From UHGV virus genome UHGV-0140152: a stretch of DNA of 19,401 nucleotides; one strand, written 5' to 3'. Within the stretch, counting starts at the first letter, position 1. Every line of letters starts with the position of its first letter. Below are positions 210-19,401 of the stretch, in pieces. Origin of the DNA: a virus. Both the position numbers and the translations under genes were made by a program. The notes under the pieces are model-generated. The model ran no database searches, was not told the DNA's origin, and saw only the letters and a list, made by a program, of their open reading frames with translations.

Positions 210-275
210 AAAACAATTTGTTTTCTGCCTTTTGTTAATTGAGATAATAAGCCACATAAGAAAACAAATTGTTTC
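210..275. promoter_or_regulatory. two AACAA-N-TTGTT palindromic operator-like sites upstream of the first island gene
   Basis: aaaacaatttgtttt (about 210-224) and aaaacaaattgttt (about 261-274). The same palindrome family recurs upstream of the genes starting at 2166, 2711, 3662, 7473 and 19365. Confidence 0.5.
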
Positions 276-287
276 GGAGTGGTTGAA

Positions 288-587
288 ATGTTGAACATTA
301 CCCAAGCCTACCAGGTGGCATTGATCAGTTCATCTCATACATCAGAGGAAGATGCTCGCCGATTCATGATCGCAAGCAATGAGCTGGATTGGGTTTCGCA
401 AATTGACGGCGGTTGTATTGTCCACGCCGGGTTACAGGATGATGTCTGGAAAGACGACTTGCGTCGATATGGTATATCCGAAGGCGCGATTGCTAACATT
501 CAGAAAGTACTTGATGTAGGCTTTGACTCTGTACATTTTGATTGTGGTGCGCCGGTCGTTGAAGGGCTTGAGTGCTGGAACTGGTAA
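288..587 (+). CDS. hypothetical protein (about 100 aa)
   Basis: Track ORF 279..587; ATG at 288 sits 8 nt after GGAG. The track start at 279 is a GTG alternative. No family recognised. Confidence 0.6.
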   Translation: MLNITQAYQVALISSSHTSEEDARRFMIASNELDWVSQIDGGCIVHAGLQDDVWKDDLRRYGISEGAIANIQKVLDVGFDSVHFDCGAPVVEGLECWNW

Positions 588-699: not shown

Positions 700-1560
700 T
701 ATCAATAAGTTATAGTTGTTTATACAAACCAGAAAACAACTGAATAACAGATCAATGAAACCTCAACACTTTCACCCGATTTGGTCTAAAAAATTGACGT
801 TTTCACACATCACTTCTTATACCCGCAATTCTACGCAGCAGACAGCGCCACAGCGTCCAATTTTCACCACAGACGACTCAACACACTACCAACAAAAACA
901 CACGCTCAAAATCGCTCCCGTTGCGTTACACAACCATATAAACAACTTATTTTCAGGAATAACAAAACAACTAAATAACACATGCGCCATTCCCAAAAAC
1001 AACCAACCTCTTTATGGCAGGCTACCGAAAAGACCCACCTCTTCTTCCCAGGCTACCGGACAACCAACCTAACTTTCACAGGCAATACGAAAACATTCAT
1101 GCGCGCGATACCCACGACACGCCATTCCCCAAACAGCGAAGAAACACCAGAATCACTGAAACCCCAACGAAGCCTGTTACCGCAAGGATTCTCTCAATCC
1201 CAAAAGACACGAAACATAACAATCACGGGAAACGCCATTACCCAATACACGAATAACCACAAAAGCCTTTCACACACTCCAGACAAACAACTCAAACACA
1301 ATAACGAAAGGAATCGCCCACCTGCCATTACTCCATACACGGAGAAAAACAATCACCAAAACGACGAGAACACCCCATAGAAGAACCACCGCAAAACGAA
1401 CGAAACCATTTACACCGACAGAGAGAACAACACACCCAATTCACCAACAGAATTAGTCGCCGTATAGAACGTTCTGGAAGGAGTGAGCATTAACGTCCAT
1501 AGAGAGGTTGAGACAGATAAAACACGAAGAAAACACAACATGTATAGCGAAGAAGCCAGG
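700..1560 (+). other. about 850-bp non-coding tract, A+C-rich and G-poor on the plus strand
   Basis: Strong strand compositional skew. The only ORFs are overlapping low-complexity P/T/N/Q-rich frames with no RBS. Contains degenerate roughly 30-bp repeats starting caggctaccg (about 1017-1083). Confidence 0.6.
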
Positions 1561-1802: not shown

Positions 1803-2165
1803 ACAGGTATAGCGAGAGGGAGAGTTGCGGCTACCCACCTGTAATGTGCGGGAAGAAGAGAGACGCTCACGTGCAGGTGAACTTACTTACCGCTGGATTC
1901 CCTCTGAATGCCCAGCTACAGCGTAATTGTGCCAGACAGTCAGCGGGTCACAATCGATTTCAGTAGGTTTTCGGGGAGAGGATTATTCTGTCCACCAGCC
2001 ACCTTCGGCCACTAAATCAGAATAATGTAAAAAGTGTACTCGGTACTGAACCTGAAAAATCACTGCCAAAACCACATTCACCGGAATAAAATCCTTTTTC
2101 GCCTTTGCGTTATTGCGATAATAACACCAACAAGAAAACAACGTGTTTAGGCAAAGGAGAAATAC

Positions 2166-2601: not shown

Positions 2602-2710
2602 CTGTTTGCAACCTCCGGGGCAGCGCAGCGCCGTAACGCTATGCTTTGTAGCCTTTTTCTTACTGGTATTATTTACGCCATTGAGAAAACAAGTTGTTTA
2701 CGGAGTTGTG

Positions 2711-3025
2711 ATGAAAAAATCATTGGTTCTTGGTCTGGACAAAGACCAGAAGAGAAAAGAGAAGCCTGCACTGGTTGCTCAATTAACTTTGCTGGACATC
2801 GTTGCCAATGGAACCTCTATTCGTCTGTTCCGTGAAACAGCGGTGTCTTTCGATAAAAACACCTTTACTCGTTATGTAATGAATGTTCGTCGCCAGCGTG
2901 GAAAAGGCTGGGTGGCATTTCAAAGAATGTGGCCTGCACATCAGCTCGAGCTGGCTTTGATGGAAGTAAACCGCGTGGCCCAGCAAGAAATTCAGAGAGC
3001 ATCAGTGATGGCAACAGCCTGGTAA
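2711..3025 (+). CDS. hypothetical protein (104 aa, MKKSLVLGLDKDQKRKEK...)
   Basis: In-frame ATG inside track ORF 2375..3025, downstream of the 2578-2601 terminator; GGAG 5 nt upstream; AAACAAGTTGTTT palindrome at about 2686-2699. Confidence 0.6.
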   Translation: MKKSLVLGLDKDQKRKEKPALVAQLTLLDIVANGTSIRLFRETAVSFDKNTFTRYVMNVRRQRGKGWVAFQRMWPAHQLELALMEVNRVAQQEIQRASVMATAW

Positions 3026-3582: not shown

Positions 3583-3661
3583 TACCCGATAATAATTTGT
3601 TTTCTACCTTATCTGATTTGTGAAAATGATTTCACTGAAGCAACTTAATAAGGAAAAAATC

Positions 3662-4317: not shown

Positions 4318-4425
4318 AGGTCTGGGAGTTACTTCAGTTTTAAAAATGCCTGCTTCCGTATATATAAATAATAAGTAACTTAATAAATATATACGGAAGC
4401 AGGCACTGTTAAGACTCCAGAAGTG
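4318..4425. repeat. structured palindromic element, copy 1 (17-bp stem, conserved AT-rich 22-nt loop)
   Basis: CCTGCTTCCGTATATAT-aaataataagtaacttaataa-ATATATACGGAAGCAGG with flanking ggtctgggag. A near-identical copy lies at 19171-19267. Confidence 0.7.
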
Positions 4426-4656: not shown

Positions 4657-4908
4657 ATGAGCTATCAAATTCTGACGACGACAGCAGCCAGCATTACTGA
4701 GCTGAAAAGAAACCCTATGGGCACTGTAGCTGAAGGTGAGGGGGAGGCCGTCGCAATCCTGAACCGGAATGAACCCGCGTTTTACTGTGTCCCACCAGAA
4801 CTTTATGCCTACTATCGGGAACTCGCCGAGGACGCTGAACTTAACGCGATTGCAGATGAAAGAATGAAAGAACCGGACATTGTGAAGGTTAACCTGAATG
4901 ACCTATGA
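4657..4908 (+). CDS. stbD: type II antitoxin, Phd/YefM (StbD-like) family
   Basis: 83-aa protein MSYQILTTTAASITELKRNP... resembling StbD/Phd antitoxins; GAGGAGG RBS; overlaps the downstream RelE-like toxin gene. Confidence 0.8.
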   Translation: MSYQILTTTAASITELKRNPMGTVAEGEGEAVAILNRNEPAFYCVPPELYAYYRELAEDAELNAIADERMKEPDIVKVNLNDL

Positions 4909-5179
4909 GCTGGCATTTGAACGCAGGGCACTGAAAGAATGGCAGAAGCTCGGCCACACTGTTCGTGAACAATTCAAAAAGAAGCTGTCAGAGCGCCTGA
5001 AAAATCCACATGTCCCCGCAGCCAGGCTATATGGTCATACTGACCGTTACAAAATTAAGCTTCGCGCATCCGGTTACAGGCTCGTTTATCAGGTAATTGA
5101 TGAGAAGGTTGTTTTGCTTGTCATTGCTGTAGGAAAAAGGGAAAGCAGCGAAGTCTATCACACGGCTGATACTCGTTAG
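4898..5179 (+). CDS. stbE: type II toxin, RelE/StbE family mRNA interferase
   Basis: 93-aa protein with ...RALKEWQKLG..., ...YKIKLRASGYRLVYQVIDEKVV..., ...VGKRESSEVY..., closely matching E. coli RelE as I recall it. Classic coupled antitoxin-toxin arrangement. Confidence 0.85.
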   Translation: MTYELAFERRALKEWQKLGHTVREQFKKKLSERLKNPHVPAARLYGHTDRYKIKLRASGYRLVYQVIDEKVVLLVIAVGKRESSEVYHTADTR

Positions 5180-7300: not shown

Positions 7301-7472
7301 TGACCATCCTGTCTCCCGCAGGCTAAAAACACCAACCTCTTACCTCCAGGCAACCGACAAACCCACCTGTTCCCGTCCGGCTACCGCAACTTTCCACTTT
7401 GACGCCTTATTCGTACAACCATAATTAACACCAACAAGAGAACAATTTGTTATTTAGAATAAGGAATCAATC

Positions 7473-10549: not shown

Positions 10550-11113
10550 TTAAAATGGAAGGATTCGGTCAACCCAATCGAAGAGAACAATCATTCTTGC
10601 ATGTTCCCTGATTTTCATCGTCACCTGACAAGCATCAACGCCTAACGACACTCCCTCTATTTCACGGCCATCCGCCATGTAGACCCTTATAGATCTGCCG
10701 TTTTGATGAGCTTTGCGACATATCTTAAAAAAGTCACGACGTGATGGCTGGTTGTTCACGTAGTCAGGATGTACGGTAAGCCTGTCCGCAAAGTCCCCAT
10801 CTACTTCTGGAGGTATAATCGTTTCTATAGAGCTAACTTTCCCAAGAGGAAGACGAACTCGACGCTCTTTGCTTCTTGGAACGGGTGATAGATCAAGTTT
10901 GTTGCGTGATGGTAGTGTTCCCTGTACATACATGTTGAATACCTGTCCATCTTCCATCGTGACTTTTACAGGAACAGAGTGTGCCCTCCAGAACATCAAG
11001 GTATGTTCCACATTAGAATAGTCTCGCGGCCATACTTCAGCCGGTATGCCGTATGTAATATCTTTCGTCGTCATATCATTATAAAGTGGTTGGCAATATG
11101 TCCATTGTACCAT
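10550..11113 (-). CDS. hypothetical protein (187 aa; possibly 174 aa from an internal ATG at about 11074)
   Basis: Track ORF. The 11113 start overlaps the lipoprotein gene by 35 nt; the alternative ATG lies a few nt after the lipoprotein stop. No clear RBS for either. Confidence 0.55.
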   Translation of the reverse strand: MVQWTYCQPLYNDMTTKDITYGIPAEVWPRDYSNVEHTLMFWRAHSVPVKVTMEDGQVFNMYVQGTLPSRNKLDLSPVPRSKERRVRLPLGKVSSIETIIPPEVDGDFADRLTVHPDYVNNQPSRRDFFKICRKAHQNGRSIRVYMADGREIEGVSLGVDACQVTMKIREHARMIVLFDWVDRILPF

Positions 11114-14071: not shown

Positions 14072-14350
14072 TTACGGCAACCTGCTCAGTATTTCCTCCA
14101 GATCTTCTTTGGTCATATTAGAGTTCTCATAAATACGCATAATTTTCTCACGAGTCTTAGCAGAGACTCCAACGGCAGATGAAACTTTGTCAAATTCAGC
14201 CATTGTCATTGTCTCCAGAATGGCATTGATAACTTCAGCCTTAGACATTTTGATATTTTTTTCTTTTAGTTTCACTTGAAACTTTCCAAGTTTGTCATTG
14301 GCCTTATCCGACAATGACACCTGACAATAAGTTGTTTTCTTTTCGCTCAT
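14072..14350 (-). CDS. small putative ribbon-helix-helix DNA-binding protein (92 aa)
   Basis: N-terminal strand-helix-helix pattern (TTYCQVSLSDKANDKLGKF...MSKAEVINAILETM); start is 2 nt after the helicase stop, suggesting translational coupling. Confidence 0.55.
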   Translation of the reverse strand: MSEKKTTYCQVSLSDKANDKLGKFQVKLKEKNIKMSKAEVINAILETMTMAEFDKVSSAVGVSAKTREKIMRIYENSNMTKEDLEEILSRLP

Positions 14351-15912: not shown

Positions 15913-15976
15913 AAACCTCTTTCCTTAGTGCCTTTTGTATGTTATTTGGCTATTATAATAAGTAAGCAATTACTTA
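15913..15976. promoter_or_regulatory. compact divergent promoter region with palindromic operator
   Basis: Self-complementary tattataata containing TATAAT on both strands, followed by the palindrome TAAGTAA-gcaa-TTACTTA at about 15959-15976. Confidence 0.5.
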
Positions 15977-16675
15977 GTGGATTGTAGCAATAAAATGGAT
16001 GTAAAAATTACGATTTTGCAGGTTGATGTTGCCAACCTTCGCCCGAATACCTGGAACACCAATTCGGTTGGTGCGCAGAATTTTGAAAAACTGAAAGGTT
16101 CTATCGAAAAATTAGGCTTTTTTAAACCAATTTTGGCTCGTGAAATTGAAGATGGATTTTTTGAAATCCTCGGTGGCGAACATCGCTGGCGTGCCGCTAT
16201 TGAGCAAGGAATTTCAACGGTTCCAGTGCTTTCTGTGGGCAAAATTAGCGATGTCGTAGCTAAACAGATGTCACTGGTGGACAACGAGCGATATGGTGAA
16301 GACGACCAAATCGCATTGCAACGCTTCATTGAAGAAATTCAGTCAGAACTTGACTATCAACTGTCTGAAATCGCCCCGTATGACGACGAAATCTCGATGG
16401 TTTTAGCAAAAGAGGCGGCAATCGACCTTGAAGCACTGGAGGCGTTGTCTCGTGGTAGTGATGAGCCTGTCGATACCGACAAACGAGAGAAAACCGAACG
16501 TGTGGGGGCGGAACATCAGACCATGCGCTTCAAAGTAACTTTCGATGCGTCAGATCGTGTTGCAGAAACCATAAAAAACATCATCAAAGAGCAGGCTATT
16601 AACACCGGTAATGAAATGGAGAACGCTGGTGAGGCTCTGGTGTGGCTGGTCGACTACTACAAGGAGCGTATGTAA
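15977..16675 (+). CDS. ParB/Srx-like N-terminal domain protein (about 226-232 aa)
   Basis: ParB-box-like motif ILGGEHRWRAAIEQG. The track start at 15977 is GTG; an alternative ATG lies at 15995; no strong RBS for either. Confidence 0.7.
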   Translation: MDCSNKMDVKITILQVDVANLRPNTWNTNSVGAQNFEKLKGSIEKLGFFKPILAREIEDGFFEILGGEHRWRAAIEQGISTVPVLSVGKISDVVAKQMSLVDNERYGEDDQIALQRFIEEIQSELDYQLSEIAPYDDEISMVLAKEAAIDLEALEALSRGSDEPVDTDKREKTERVGAEHQTMRFKVTFDASDRVAETIKNIIKEQAINTGNEMENAGEALVWLVDYYKERM

Positions 16676-17343
16676 TGACCAAAAAGTTTGAAATCGTATA
16701 TCGCGACCCGGCAGATCTTATTCCCTATGAGATGAATGCCAAAAAGCATGATGAACAGCAGATCCGAGATCTGGCCGCAGCCATTAAAAAGCGCGGATTT
16801 GACCAGCCAATTACGGTCGATAAGAACGACGTAATTATTACTGGCCACGGCCGCCGTGAGGCTGCAATTTTTGCTGGACTTGAGCGCGTACCGGTTATTG
16901 TTCGCGATGATCTCAGTGATGACGAGGTTCGTGCGAAGCGCCTTGAAGATAACCGACTTGCCAGCATTGATTACGATGCAATTAAGCTACAGAAAGAGCT
17001 TGAGTCGCTTGTTCTGGACGATATCGAGGTTTTCGGCTTTGAAGAGCGTGAGTTGAATGTTCTCGTTGGCAGCATGACAGAAGAAATGGACACCGACTCG
17101 CTAGTTATCGATCTGGGCGAAGAAACTAAACGACAGAAGGATGAACACACCGAGATCAGTCGTGAAGTTGCAGCGGAAGAAGTACGTGTTGTCGACGTAT
17201 TGGGCTTTAAAACGCTCCCTGCTGGCTCTGCCATTGTTGTTGGTGATTTGCTTGCCCACATGGAAGAAATGACGAGAGAAAGCGGGGTAGACGCATTTGT
17301 GGCATATGCGGAGAAGATCTCTTCCGGGGAGATGGCTGCATGA
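16675..17343 (+). CDS. second ParB/Srx-like domain protein (222 aa)
   Basis: Motif IITGHGRREAAIFAG. Preferred start is the ATG at 16675 within track ORF 16642..17343, 8 nt after AAGGAG and overlapping the upstream stop by 1 nt. Acidic C-terminal half. Confidence 0.75.
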   Translation: MTKKFEIVYRDPADLIPYEMNAKKHDEQQIRDLAAAIKKRGFDQPITVDKNDVIITGHGRREAAIFAGLERVPVIVRDDLSDDEVRAKRLEDNRLASIDYDAIKLQKELESLVLDDIEVFGFEERELNVLVGSMTEEMDTDSLVIDLGEETKRQKDEHTEISREVAAEEVRVVDVLGFKTLPAGSAIVVGDLLAHMEEMTRESGVDAFVAYAEKISSGEMAA

Positions 17344-18005
17344 GCAAATACATCATCAACGTATCGTTTCAGACACGCGTAAATAAAACCACGCGCACGT
17401 TGGAAATCGCTGAGTCGTTCGGGCTTGGCCTGGACGAAAAAGAGTGGACGCTTTACGACAATCTGGAGCTGGAAGTGAAGCAGGGCGATGTGGTGTACAT
17501 CACCGGCCAATCCGGTTCAGGTAAATCCGTTGTGTTGCGCGAGCTGCAACGCCAGATGAAGGATGAAGGGCTTTCTGTAGCTTCTATTGATGACTTTACC
17601 TTCGATAATGAGGTTAACGTCATTGACCAACTGGGCAAAACTACCAGTGATGCGCTTGGGTTGTTATCTATGGCAGGTCTGAACGATGCATATCTGTTTG
17701 TTCGCAAGCCTTCTGAAATGTCAGACGGTCAGAAATATCGTCTCAAGATTGCCAAACTGATTGAGTCAGGCGCTAAAGTGTGGGCTGCTGACGAGTTCGG
17801 TGCTGTTCTCGATCGTGTAACCGCTCAGGTTGTGGCATCTAACCTCCAGCGTGCCGCTCGAAAGGTTGGTGCGACGGTAATGGTGGCGACGACTCACGAA
17901 GACTTGAAGAACGCGCTGCGCCCGGATATGCAGATCACCAAGCACTACAAAGAACGCGTGAAGGTGGAGTATCACAATGGTAGTCATGATGAGGCTCATT
18001 CATGA
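17340..18005 (+). CDS. stand-alone ABC-type ATPase, nucleotide-binding domain only (221 aa)
   Basis: Walker A GQSGSGKS, signature-like SDGQKYR, Walker B plus D-loop VWAADEFGAVLD, H-loop ATTHE. No permease gene nearby; start overlaps the upstream stop. Confidence 0.8.
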   Translation: MSKYIINVSFQTRVNKTTRTLEIAESFGLGLDEKEWTLYDNLELEVKQGDVVYITGQSGSGKSVVLRELQRQMKDEGLSVASIDDFTFDNEVNVIDQLGKTTSDALGLLSMAGLNDAYLFVRKPSEMSDGQKYRLKIAKLIESGAKVWAADEFGAVLDRVTAQVVASNLQRAARKVGATVMVATTHEDLKNALRPDMQITKHYKERVKVEYHNGSHDEAHS

Positions 18006-18892
18006 CGGACATCATCATTAAACGCTACCGCCCTGAAGAGTTTCCGCGTCATCTGGACTTTCTGGAGCGAATGACAGTCACAAAGGGAACTGTAGAGGAC
18101 TGGCACGCTCTTAAGTCGCTTCACTACAAAACAGACGGCAAACCTTTCGCGCCAACTTACTATCGCTGCGAACTTGACGACCGTCTGGTGGGCGTCGTGG
18201 TTATGGCTTACCCGAAACTACTGCTGGCACCTCGCCACCGCATGTTTCCTAAGTTGAAACCAACCACCAATACCACCGTGGCTAACCAGTACTGGGGTCG
18301 GTACGTGAATAACAACTTTGCGGTGATCAGTCGCTCAGTTGTGGATACTCAGTATCGTGGCGTAGGCGTCTCTTATCGAATGATTAACCTGGTTAGCAGG
18401 ATGCATGACCGGCCAATCATTGAGATCCAGTCCTCGATGAGCAAATACAATCCCTTCGCCATGAAAGCAGGGTTTAAGTTCATCCGCCCTGAGCGACCGA
18501 AGAGCTATGAAAGTGCACTGCGTGTTTTCCAGCGTCATTTTCGCTCCGACCCGGGTGATAACGAGGCGATCGTCAAAGAGTTGTTCGCAATGAGCGAGTC
18601 ACGTCGTCGCCGTGCACTGCGTGATATGGTGGCGGACTACCACAAGAACAGTTCCCTGGCAAAAGCTGGGCGGAATCGTGGCACGACGATTCAGGACATT
18701 GCCGACAGTCTGGTGGACGAGGCCAGCATTGTGAAGCTGCTCAAGGACATTCACAACCTGAGCTTTACGTCTCCGCTGTATGGTGTGTACCGAAACCCTG
18801 ACTTTGGTCGTCGACTGCCTGACACGCTGCCACTGCTGGCATTCGACAAACAACCTTTGGATAAACCGTTAGAAATTGCTTTACCGGCATAA
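18002..18892 (+). CDS. GNAT-like acyltransferase-fold protein with C-terminal extension (296 aa)
   Basis: Motif-A-like AVISRSVVDTQYRGVGVSYRMINLV and motif-B-like YNPFAMKAGFKFI; start overlaps the ABC ATPase stop. Confidence 0.55.
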   Translation: MTDIIIKRYRPEEFPRHLDFLERMTVTKGTVEDWHALKSLHYKTDGKPFAPTYYRCELDDRLVGVVVMAYPKLLLAPRHRMFPKLKPTTNTTVANQYWGRYVNNNFAVISRSVVDTQYRGVGVSYRMINLVSRMHDRPIIEIQSSMSKYNPFAMKAGFKFIRPERPKSYESALRVFQRHFRSDPGDNEAIVKELFAMSESRRRRALRDMVADYHKNSSLAKAGRNRGTTIQDIADSLVDEASIVKLLKDIHNLSFTSPLYGVYRNPDFGRRLPDTLPLLAFDKQPLDKPLEIALPA

Positions 18893-18901
18893 GGATTTGC
18901 C

Positions 18902-19168
18902 ATGACGTTAACCGACAAACAAAAGGACATAATCAAAACGCTCAATCTCGGTTATGAGCGAGGTCATCTACTTGATCTGGACGAATTGCTTGAAGTTTTG
19001 CCGTACAAGACAACCAAGCAAAGTATCCAGTTCTCAATTCGCGCTCTGATAAAAAAGGGGCTGGTGGAGAAAGGGCATACGCGTCAACGCAGTGACAATC
19101 GCTATCACCGCCGGACTCTTGGGTTAACCACTTTAGGTCGAGCCAAAGCGAAGTTACTGGTGATGTAA
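18902..19168 (+). CDS. small basic protein, possible winged-helix DNA-binding regulator (88 aa)
   Basis: Track ORF; start 9 nt after the upstream stop; HTH-like segment TTKQSIQFSIRALIKKGLVEKG; last gene of the operon. Confidence 0.5.
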   Translation: MTLTDKQKDIIKTLNLGYERGHLLDLDELLEVLPYKTTKQSIQFSIRALIKKGLVEKGHTRQRSDNRYHRRTLGLTTLGRAKAKLLVM

Positions 19169-19170
19169 TC

Positions 19171-19267
19171 GGTCTGGGAGCTTATTTAAAGACCTGCTTC
19201 TGTATATATAAATAATAAGTAACTTAATAAATATATACGGAAGCAGGCTTAATAAGACATGCCCAGA
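19171..19267. repeat. structured palindromic element, copy 2
   Basis: ggtctgggag ... CCTGCTTCTGTATATAT-aaataataagtaacttaataa-ATATATACGGAAGCAGG. One C-to-T change in the left arm would keep a G-U pair in RNA. Confidence 0.7.
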
Positions 19268-19282
19268 TTCAATTAAACACAC

Positions 19283-19345
19283 CAGTAAACAAGTTGGTTA
19301 ATAGATGCAGTAAACAAGTTGTTTTAGAGCGCATGGACGCGCTCT
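19283..19345 (+). promoter_or_regulatory. direct repeats and operator-like palindromes upstream of the next gene
   Basis: cagtaaacaagttg twice; the second copy forms AAACAAGTTGTTT, identical to the palindrome at about 2686-2699. Followed by the hairpin AGAGCGC-atggac-GCGCTCT. Confidence 0.45.
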
Positions 19346-19364
19346 ATGTGTTTTAGAGGGATCT

Positions 19365-19401
19365 ATGACTGTCGAAAAAGACGAGGTGAAAACTCGCCTG
19401 A
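19365..19401 (+). CDS. 5' end of a gene running off the window (MTVEKDEVKTRL...)
   Basis: ATG 6 nt after GAGGG, open to the window end. Only 12 codons visible. Confidence 0.4.
   Translation, partial: MTVEKDEVKTRL

Follow-up and report, generated by a model that had tools for sequence, protein, structure and literature searches.

A 13-bp palindrome, AAACAA-N-TTGTTT, recurs upstream of genes in a 19,401-nucleotide stretch of the virus genome UHGV-0140152 (UHGV), analysed here as one strand and called the window, and in the phage-plasmids of the SSU5/pHCM2 type to which the window belongs. The palindrome is probably the DNA operator of a genome-wide regulon of these elements, controlled by one repressor that the element itself encodes. 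A shared, promoter-proximal palindromic operator implying a single regulator had been proposed in a preliminary description of the window, and the enrichment, placement and symmetry of the site all speak for that proposal as far as sequence can. The kind of system is familiar; this operator set is newly described here, and a literature search found no paper on a regulatory site, circuit or regulon of SSU5-type elements.

The window is, by its sequence matches, a section of an SSU5/pHCM2-type phage-plasmid and corresponds to the right-end segment on linear phage maps. This assignment is based on the plasmid and phage matches and on the span from the 3' end of a plasmid-borne metG to the start of the small terminase gene (terS). 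Identity to E. coli plasmids of about 110 kb is 92-94% across about 70% of the window length. The window is also similar to phage Cyrano (pLF82) and, more distantly, to Klebsiella phage-plasmids and Salmonella phage SSU5. Marker genes of the SSU5/pHCM2 type are carried by about 800 PLSDB plasmids, and Yersinia pestis pMT1 belongs among these elements, which are frequent in clinical Escherichia, Klebsiella, Salmonella and Enterobacter. With a defined operator, the silencing of the lytic programme and of the accessory genes next to metG becomes directly accessible, and the operator set provides a list of co-regulated operons together with a simple experimental entry point.

Two perfect copies of AAACAA-N-TTGTTT occupy 211-223 and 262-274, within positions 210-275 of the window, which has nine copies of the 13-bp core in total. 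The palindrome is odd, with a spacer of 1 base; a search of the window for a version with a 2-base spacer gave nothing above chance. A motif scan, which the preliminary description had suggested as a check, revealed clear enrichment: the exact 11-mer AACAANTTGTT occurs 5 times in the window, with 0.06 occurrences expected. Allowing up to one mismatch, 10 occurrences were found against 1.8 expected, a number reached in none of 200 shuffles. The genes with copies upstream are those previously listed, with starts at 288, 2166, 2711, 3662, 7473 and 19365; the first and the last of them have two copies each.

The copies occupy two fixed positions relative to hexamers that resemble a -10 element. 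In class A, the hexamer (e.g., GATAAT or TATTAT), mostly with TGn before it, ends 20-21 nt 5' of the palindrome centre. With this geometry the centre falls at about +14, and the core, spanning roughly +8 to +20, abuts the ribosome-binding site on its 5' side; the distance from the centre to the start codon is 17-26 nt, as counted by hand from the flanks. In class B, the hexamer begins 26 nt 3' of the palindrome centre, which puts the centre at about -38, where a -35 element would lie. The copies at 262, 2136, 2687, 7440 and 19287 of the window belong to class A, those at 211 and 3590 to class B; several promoters bear a class B copy only. A generic sigma-70 scan found no -35/-10 pair and no -35 match at the motif promoters, which are predicted to be sigma-70 promoters of the extended -10 type (TGnGATAAT) without a -35 element.

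The promoter of gene 288 (288..587, plus strand), which encodes a DUF5983/DUF1380-like protein of 99 aa, bears both classes, with centres 51 bp apart. The class B copy (211..223, AAACAATTTGTTT, exact) is centred at about -38 and the class A copy (262..274, AAACAAATTGTTT, exact) at about +14, directly 5' of a GGAG ribosome-binding site; the latter is kept in the Cyrano, SSU5 and pJN2-26 orthologues. Between them, the putative extended -10 TGaGATAAT (240..248, plus strand), read from the sequence and accompanied by no -35 match, has the same spacing to both operators as in paralogous promoters; its GATAAT begins 26 nt 3' of the centre of 211..223. At gene 2166, the hexamer of the putative extended -10 TGcGATAAT (2114..2122, plus strand) ends 20 nt 5' of the centre of a class A copy with one mismatch (2136..2148, AAACAACGTGTTT), a variant also found at SSU5 92169 and pJN2-26 27047. 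Gene 2711 has the putative extended -10 TGgTATTAT (2664..2672, plus strand) and an exact class A copy (2687..2699, AAACAAGTTGTTT) that is invariant in four genomes, while the sequence further upstream has diverged. The class B copy of gene 3662 is degenerate, with two mismatches (3590..3602, TAATAATTTGTTT), and lies 26 nt 5' of the -10 look-alike TGtGAAAAT (3619-3627). Its orthologues are better, with one mismatch at Cyrano 97190 and an exact match at pJN2-26 28539; the other imperfect copy, at 2136, likewise has better orthologues in relatives. Gene 7473 is preceded by a class A copy with an exact 11-mer (7440..7452, GAACAATTTGTTA) and a -10 look-alike CATAAT at 7420-7425. The leader of the terminase (late) operon contains a first copy with one mismatch (19287..19299, AAACAAGTTGGTT) and an exact second copy (19312..19324) whose centre is 25 bp from that of the first, both 5' of the terS ATG at 19365. 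The ninth site, at 940..952 (AAACAACTTATTT), is an operator-like copy with one mismatch within an A/C-rich non-coding tract; exact orthologous copies exist at SSU5 90740 and pJN2-26 25869.

Three complete relatives with genomes of about 105 kb were scanned, namely Cyrano, SSU5 and the Klebsiella element pJN2-26. The exact 11-mer is present 12 times in Cyrano (0.34 expected), 13 times in SSU5 (0.17 expected) and 11 times in pJN2-26 (0.20 expected). Many copies of one site, in numbers above chance, are thus spread across the whole element, as in the operator set of a single repressor; they are dispersed around the genomes and are densest in the accessory-gene region, which is the left part of the window. 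The preliminary description had taken the regulon to consist of small accessory genes. That proved too narrow, as the palindrome in the complete relatives also precedes terS, parA, a DnaB-type helicase gene, cobT, nrdB, tciA, a DUF4942 methylase gene and others, so that partition, replication, nucleotide-metabolism, accessory and terminase operons all carry it. A Shine-Dalgarno sequence and the start of an open reading frame (ORF) follow 18-77 nt downstream on the plus strand at 32 of the 41 exact sites (window plus the three relatives), against 13% of random positions, and on the minus strand at a single one of the 41. A lack of promoter-proximal enrichment, which the preliminary description had named as one observation that would speak against it, was not seen.

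A weight matrix built from the 36 exact sites of the three complete relatives has a symmetric core of 13 bp, with conservation at ±1 to ±6 and a free base at the centre; the flanks on its two sides are not symmetric. Mismatches in imperfect sites are divided almost evenly between the left half (about 12) and the right half (about 15) in a hand tally. Because the dyad is exact with a free centre, mismatches are balanced between the halves and class B copies lie outside the mRNA, the site is most simply read as bound in double-stranded DNA by a protein with two-fold symmetry.

Alignments of orthologous promoters show conservation from about -45 as far as the ribosome-binding site and divergence further upstream. 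The palindrome is kept in elements of E. coli, Salmonella, Klebsiella and Yersinia while the neighbouring sequence varies, and among 34 sequence variants of the terS leader both palindromes are retained and the 12-nt spacer between them varies freely. Yersinia pestis pMT1 retains copies at terS, cobT and three other genes. In the distant syntenic phage-plasmids Drgb1 (Pectobacterium) and pW1-b (Moellerella), no exact motif was found, and near matches occur there only at chance level. Some Drgb1 promoters, e.g., those of the gene at 47569 and of thyX, have a different palindrome, GTAT...ATAC, at the equivalent position.

Expression of the motif genes could be read from the RNA sequencing table of a lysogen of Cyrano in E. 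coli LF82, in which the background has a median of 9.8 normalised counts (PMC9928086, Table S1). The values are 7.1 for terS (CYRAN_1), 7.8 for cobT (CYRAN_47), 5.7 for CYRAN_58, 12.9 for nrdB, 7.0 for tciA, 7.1 for CYRAN_87, 7.5 for CYRAN_101 (the orthologue of gene 288, and thus at background), 12.2 for CYRAN_106, 5.7 for CYRAN_108 and 6.7 for CYRAN_110 (PMC9928086). The targets are off in the lysogen, as the targets of a repressor would be, with parA as a partial exception. Since near-consensus extended -10 promoters are normally active unaided, this silence argues for repression rather than for a missing activator. Dyad symmetry, positions and target silence together point to an operator for a dimeric repressor.

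In the proposed mechanism, about twenty plus-strand operons would be driven by extended -10 sigma-70 promoters, including those of accessory and early genes, parA, helicase-primase, cobT, nrdB and the terminase (late) operon. Each promoter would have the palindrome at about +14, at about -38 or at both places. A repressor encoded by the element would bind with two-fold symmetry, either as a dimer or as a pseudo-dimeric protein with tandem domains, and would block the binding of RNA polymerase or its escape from the promoter. Pairs of sites at a distance of 51 or 25 bp may be bound cooperatively. The outcome would be that the operons are kept off in the plasmid-prophage state. Three points weigh against this reading. 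The parA gene has 50 normalised counts in the lysogen, about 5-fold over background, despite a perfect operator (PMC9928086). The placements at +14 and -38 are counted from -10 look-alikes. Finally, the accessory-region promoters are paralogous over about 60 bp, i.e., copies of one cassette, so that the many class A promoters among them are not independent evidence; the promoters of parA, helicase, cobT, nrdB, tciA and terS have little beyond the palindrome in common with this cassette.

The best single candidate for the protein that reads the motif is an FljA-family protein, PF03614 (Flag1_repress), encoded at 10550..11113 on the minus strand, with its start probably at the internal ATG at 11074. 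We regard it as a serious candidate, though one that stops short of being the probable binder. It matches PF03614 over the full profile length (E=1.3e-70) and PHROG 1444, 'transcriptional repressor'. A system of the FljA/fliC type requires such a protein, and the element encodes one: the family was found in all complete relatives, in pMT1 and in 80 of the 80 IMG/VR loci with enough flank. Expression of the Cyrano orthologue CYRAN_114 in the lysogen reaches log2 7-8 in 4 of 5 conditions, compared with 3-4 for silent genes. The syntenic proteins of Drgb1 and pW1-b, in which the motif is absent, are remote members of the family (PF03614 E=6e-8 and 2e-7, respectively); the Drgb1 protein has about 27% identity to the profile consensus over aligned columns, with a probability of 96% (hhalign). 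Repression of fliC by FljA operates via the leader that separates promoter and ribosome-binding site (PMC4122451). In the 40 nt 5' of the Salmonella fliC ATG, taken from published primers, ATCAAGTTGTA lies just 5' of the ribosome-binding site and matches the motif in 8 of 10 positions; the E. coli fliC leader matches in 7 of 10.

An AlphaFold2 model of the FljA-family protein predicts two tandem domains, each of one helix plus five strands. The closest solved folds to both domains are Hfq proteins, with a template modelling score of up to 0.79 and a root-mean-square deviation of about 1.2 Å over 53-57 aligned positions. No mutual sequence similarity was detected between the two domains, and no statement that the FljA family consists of tandem Hfq/Sm-like domains was found in the papers searched. 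Searches of PDB sequences with two candidates gave nothing useful. Drgb1 encodes an Hfq of its own (48354-48575), immediately 5' of its dnaB-like helicase gene.

Several observations count against the FljA-family protein as a DNA binder. Proteins with the predicted tandem Hfq/Sm-like fold typically bind RNA, and the reported action of FljA is mainly on fliC mRNA. The FljA-like proteins of the loci L087-L091 are only 35-43% identical, and the motif there is unchanged. No copy of the motif was found in the promoter region of the FljA-family gene itself. The fliC match is weak, with shuffle p=0.036 for the 11-mer and 0.21 for the 13-mer. It is conceivable, and to be held only tentatively, that the motif is read by this tandem Hfq/Sm-like protein as a global silencer at about 20 leaders, on DNA, on nascent RNA or on both, and that Salmonella FljA is a domesticated, retargeted copy of it. 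If an FljA-family protein does read the motif, both the origin of Salmonella fljA and the presence of a 'flagellin repressor' gene on these elements would be explained; interest in the system would rise if the tandem Sm-like protein proves to be the reader.

The next candidate is the homologue of CYRAN_45, a repressor of the XRE family with a helix-turn-helix (HTH) that is encoded beside the integrase gene, outside the window; as the binder of the main motif it is rather unlikely. Its gene is transcribed in the lysogen, and essentially every plasmid-state relative has it; SSU5 lacks it. In SSU5 (42400-42900) a segment of about 5.7 kb with the integrase and the XRE repressor is lacking; in 585 of 585 matching plasmids the segment is present between tRNA-Asn and cobT, and none of the 585 has the tRNA-Asn/cobT junction of SSU5. 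Because of this unique junction, SSU5, the type phage, looks like a deletion derivative of a plasmid prophage, and it is possibly virulent. Its lack of the gene therefore no longer counts against CYRAN_45. A deletion derivative that lost the XRE-HTH protein fits CYRAN_45 as the lysogeny or master repressor, which is a further point against the FljA-family protein as the binder. No copy of the motif was found in the CYRAN_45/46 intergenic control region, where GGTAAGTGCTTACC, a member of a second palindrome family, stands instead. Since its own control region carries this different palindrome, CYRAN_45 is disfavoured as the reader of the main motif, and a tentative pairing would be the XRE-HTH protein with the second palindrome and the FljA-like protein with the main one.

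The second palindrome, (G/A)TAAGT-N0-4-ACTTA(C/T), e.g., GTAAGTACTTAC, is also dispersed, with 7-17 copies per related genome, which are intergenic in genomes of the SSU5 group. Sites include the promoter of the ParB operon (15963-15981) and the XRE-HTH control region (Cyrano 42606-42619). Its variable spacer suggests either a hairpin or the site of a second regulator.

Other proteins fit the role of binder less well. Two small proteins, encoded at 18902..19168 and 2711..3025, had been put forward as regulators in the preliminary description, and both are unlikely. The first (plus strand) is a MarR-like winged-helix protein of 88 aa, predicted with a local distance difference test score (pLDDT) of 84. 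Its Cyrano orthologue CYRAN_123 is at background in the lysogen, and the recognition helix, KQS[IM]QFSIRAL, is nearly unchanged in Drgb1 and pW1-b, in which the motif is absent. The second, of 104 aa, has no family signature and no DNA-binding signature; its gene is itself under the motif, and CYRAN_106 is at lysogen background. A 92-aa protein at 14072..14350 (minus strand), with a putative ribbon-helix-helix N-terminus read from the sequence and not confirmed by Pfam, is expressed in the lysogen and is a weaker candidate. Residues 8 and 12, taken to face the DNA on a putative β-strand, vary between relatives, and the protein was not detected in the loci L087-L091, which retain the motif; both points tell against it. 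The homologues of CYRAN_37 and CYRAN_29 are absent from pMT1, which keeps the operators, though this is a weak argument as pMT1 is degenerate.

The nature of the best candidate binder keeps one alternative alive, the main rival although we consider it fairly unlikely, namely that the motif works in RNA. The leader AAG-AAAACAANUUGUUUA-GGAG would then be bound by the FljA-family protein, which would block ribosome binding and trigger decay of the mRNA, the mode of action reported for FljA on fliC mRNA; one Sm-like domain could recognise the A-rich half and the other the U-rich half. This accords with the modelling of the FljA-like protein as two Hfq-like domains and with weak Pfam matches of its Drgb1 homologue to Hfq/SM. 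The class A position, right next to the ribosome-binding site on its 5' side, and the presence of CAAGUUGU at the same place in the fliC leader agree with it too, and decay would explain the low mRNA in the lysogen no less than repression would. An exact dyad with a free centre base, however, has no rationale in single-stranded RNA, and class B copies are upstream of the -10, outside the mRNA of the gene that they precede. The motif would form no RNA hairpin, because its spacer is 1 nt, and no Rfam match was found anywhere in the window. Pairing between copies was considered and rejected in a hand comparison: the window pair 211/262 would pair perfectly, and the other pairs (SSU5 88319/88370 and 93662/93713, pJN2-26 24759/24810 and 28539/28590, and the terS pairs) are without compensation.

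It is improbable that the palindrome acts positively, either as the binding site of an activator encoded by the phage or as one part of a phage-specific promoter, with the operons switched on during lytic growth and silent in the lysogen for want of the activator. Class B copies at about -38 do overlap the position of a class II activator at promoters without a -35, about 35 bp around the class A copies are conserved as a block, and the winged-helix gene at 18902-19168 is directly upstream of the late-operon operators and off in the lysogen. Most copies, however, are at about +14, 3' of the -10, from where activation would be very unusual; a near-consensus extended -10 normally works without an activator, and the recognition helix of the winged-helix protein is kept in Drgb1 and pW1-b, where the motif is absent.

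Very improbable is a conserved host protein of Enterobacteriaceae and Yersinia that binds the motif and was recruited to silence or time the genes of the element. The motif is invariant in elements of Escherichia, Salmonella, Klebsiella, Enterobacter and Yersinia while the candidate regulators, except for the winged helix, fall to 35-78% identity, and it is absent from the Pectobacterium and Moellerella relatives. To our knowledge, however, no classical E. coli regulator box matches the motif (CRP, FNR, Fis, IHF, PurR, KdgR, PhoP, NadR, LexA and others). That the palindrome is a passenger without regulatory function in a much-duplicated promoter cassette is hardly credible, since, plainly paralogous as the accessory-region promoters are over some 60 bp, it also stands at the otherwise unrelated promoters of parA, helicase, cobT, nrdB, tciA and terS and is exact across genera in both halves while adjacent bases vary.

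With the palindrome read as the operator of a repressor, known systems offer four comparisons. The operators of the C1 repressor of P1 are asymmetric 17-mers. C1 is the closest analogue in function, as there, too, scattered lytic and accessory operons of a plasmid prophage are shut by one repressor via operators overlapping sigma-70 promoters; in the present element the operator is a 13-bp perfect dyad of unrelated sequence, the late operon also carries it, and no C1 homologue was seen. On its phage-plasmid, C1 is said by Lobocka et al. 2004 (cited in PMC11652158) to act via dispersed operators. Similarity to the FljA/fliC system lies in the PF03614 protein and in the location of the class A operator between promoter and ribosome-binding site, as in fliC. 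FljA, however, has one known target and reportedly acts mainly on mRNA, whereas there are about 20 targets here, with dyad symmetry and with copies upstream of the -10.

In RK2/IncP, the KorB OB site, an odd palindrome of 13 bp, recurs at some dozen or more promoters, with one class of sites near -39. The set described here resembles the KorB-KorA system in being a dispersed 13-bp odd palindrome with a free or degenerate centre and one site class near -39, and in having ParB-family genes grouped with the gene of a small DNA-binding protein (window 15977-19168). The sequence is nevertheless unrelated to the OB consensus TTTAGCSGCTAAA, the ParB-like operon CYRAN_119-123 is at lysogen background while the targets are repressed, and its own promoter has a different palindrome. 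The small winged-helix protein does not co-vary with the motif. An operator of the KorB/ParB OB type was rejected for the differing sequence, the silent ParB-like operon and the different palindrome at its promoter. Operators of the 434 type, ACAA-N6-TTGT, are read by XRE-family HTH repressors. The half-site letters ACAA/TTGT are the same here, and an XRE-family repressor is encoded beside the integrase (the CYRAN_45 homologue); a spacer of 1 instead of 6 bp, and the lack of a copy in the control region of that repressor, led to rejection of this type as well.

The tract around the copy at 940-952 (window 700-1450) is strongly A/C-rich and G-poor on the plus strand, with a GC skew of -0.4 to -0.55 and an AT skew of up to +0.65. 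It contains no convincing ORF and no Rfam match and ends at a hairpin resembling an intrinsic terminator (1577-1603). The Cyrano equivalent is silent in the lysogen. The tract may give rise to a long non-coding RNA without G or serve for the loading of Rho.

In many metagenome-assembled genomes of Prevotella and other Bacteroidota, among the matches listed, AAACAANTTGTTT occurs as a repeat family of pairs with a spacing of 8-38 bp. This repeat is unrelated to the phage-plasmid and calls for caution in motif searches.

The products of the operon at 15977-18892 are two ParB/Srx-like proteins, both bearing GxxRxxA-type motifs, an ATPase of the ABC type and a further ATPase joined to a predicted acetyltransferase. 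The operon is conserved in every relative, even the distant ones, and is at background in the lysogen. An identical AT-rich inverted repeat of 53 bp, CTGCTTC.GTATATATAAATAATAAGTAACTTAATAAATATATACGGAAGCAG, occurs at 4350-4402 and 19194-19246. The first copy adjoins a phd/parE toxin-antitoxin insertion (4657-5179), and the second is just 5' of the terS promoter, where the linear phage records begin. Between the operators of the terS leader and the terS ATG, a GC-rich hairpin followed by a T-run (AGAGCGC-ATGGAC-GCGCTCT; 19326..19354, plus strand) shows compensatory stem changes in relatives, with GAGCGC/GCGCTC against GAGCAC/GTGCTC. It is probably a leader terminator; if so, the late operon would be under antitermination control.

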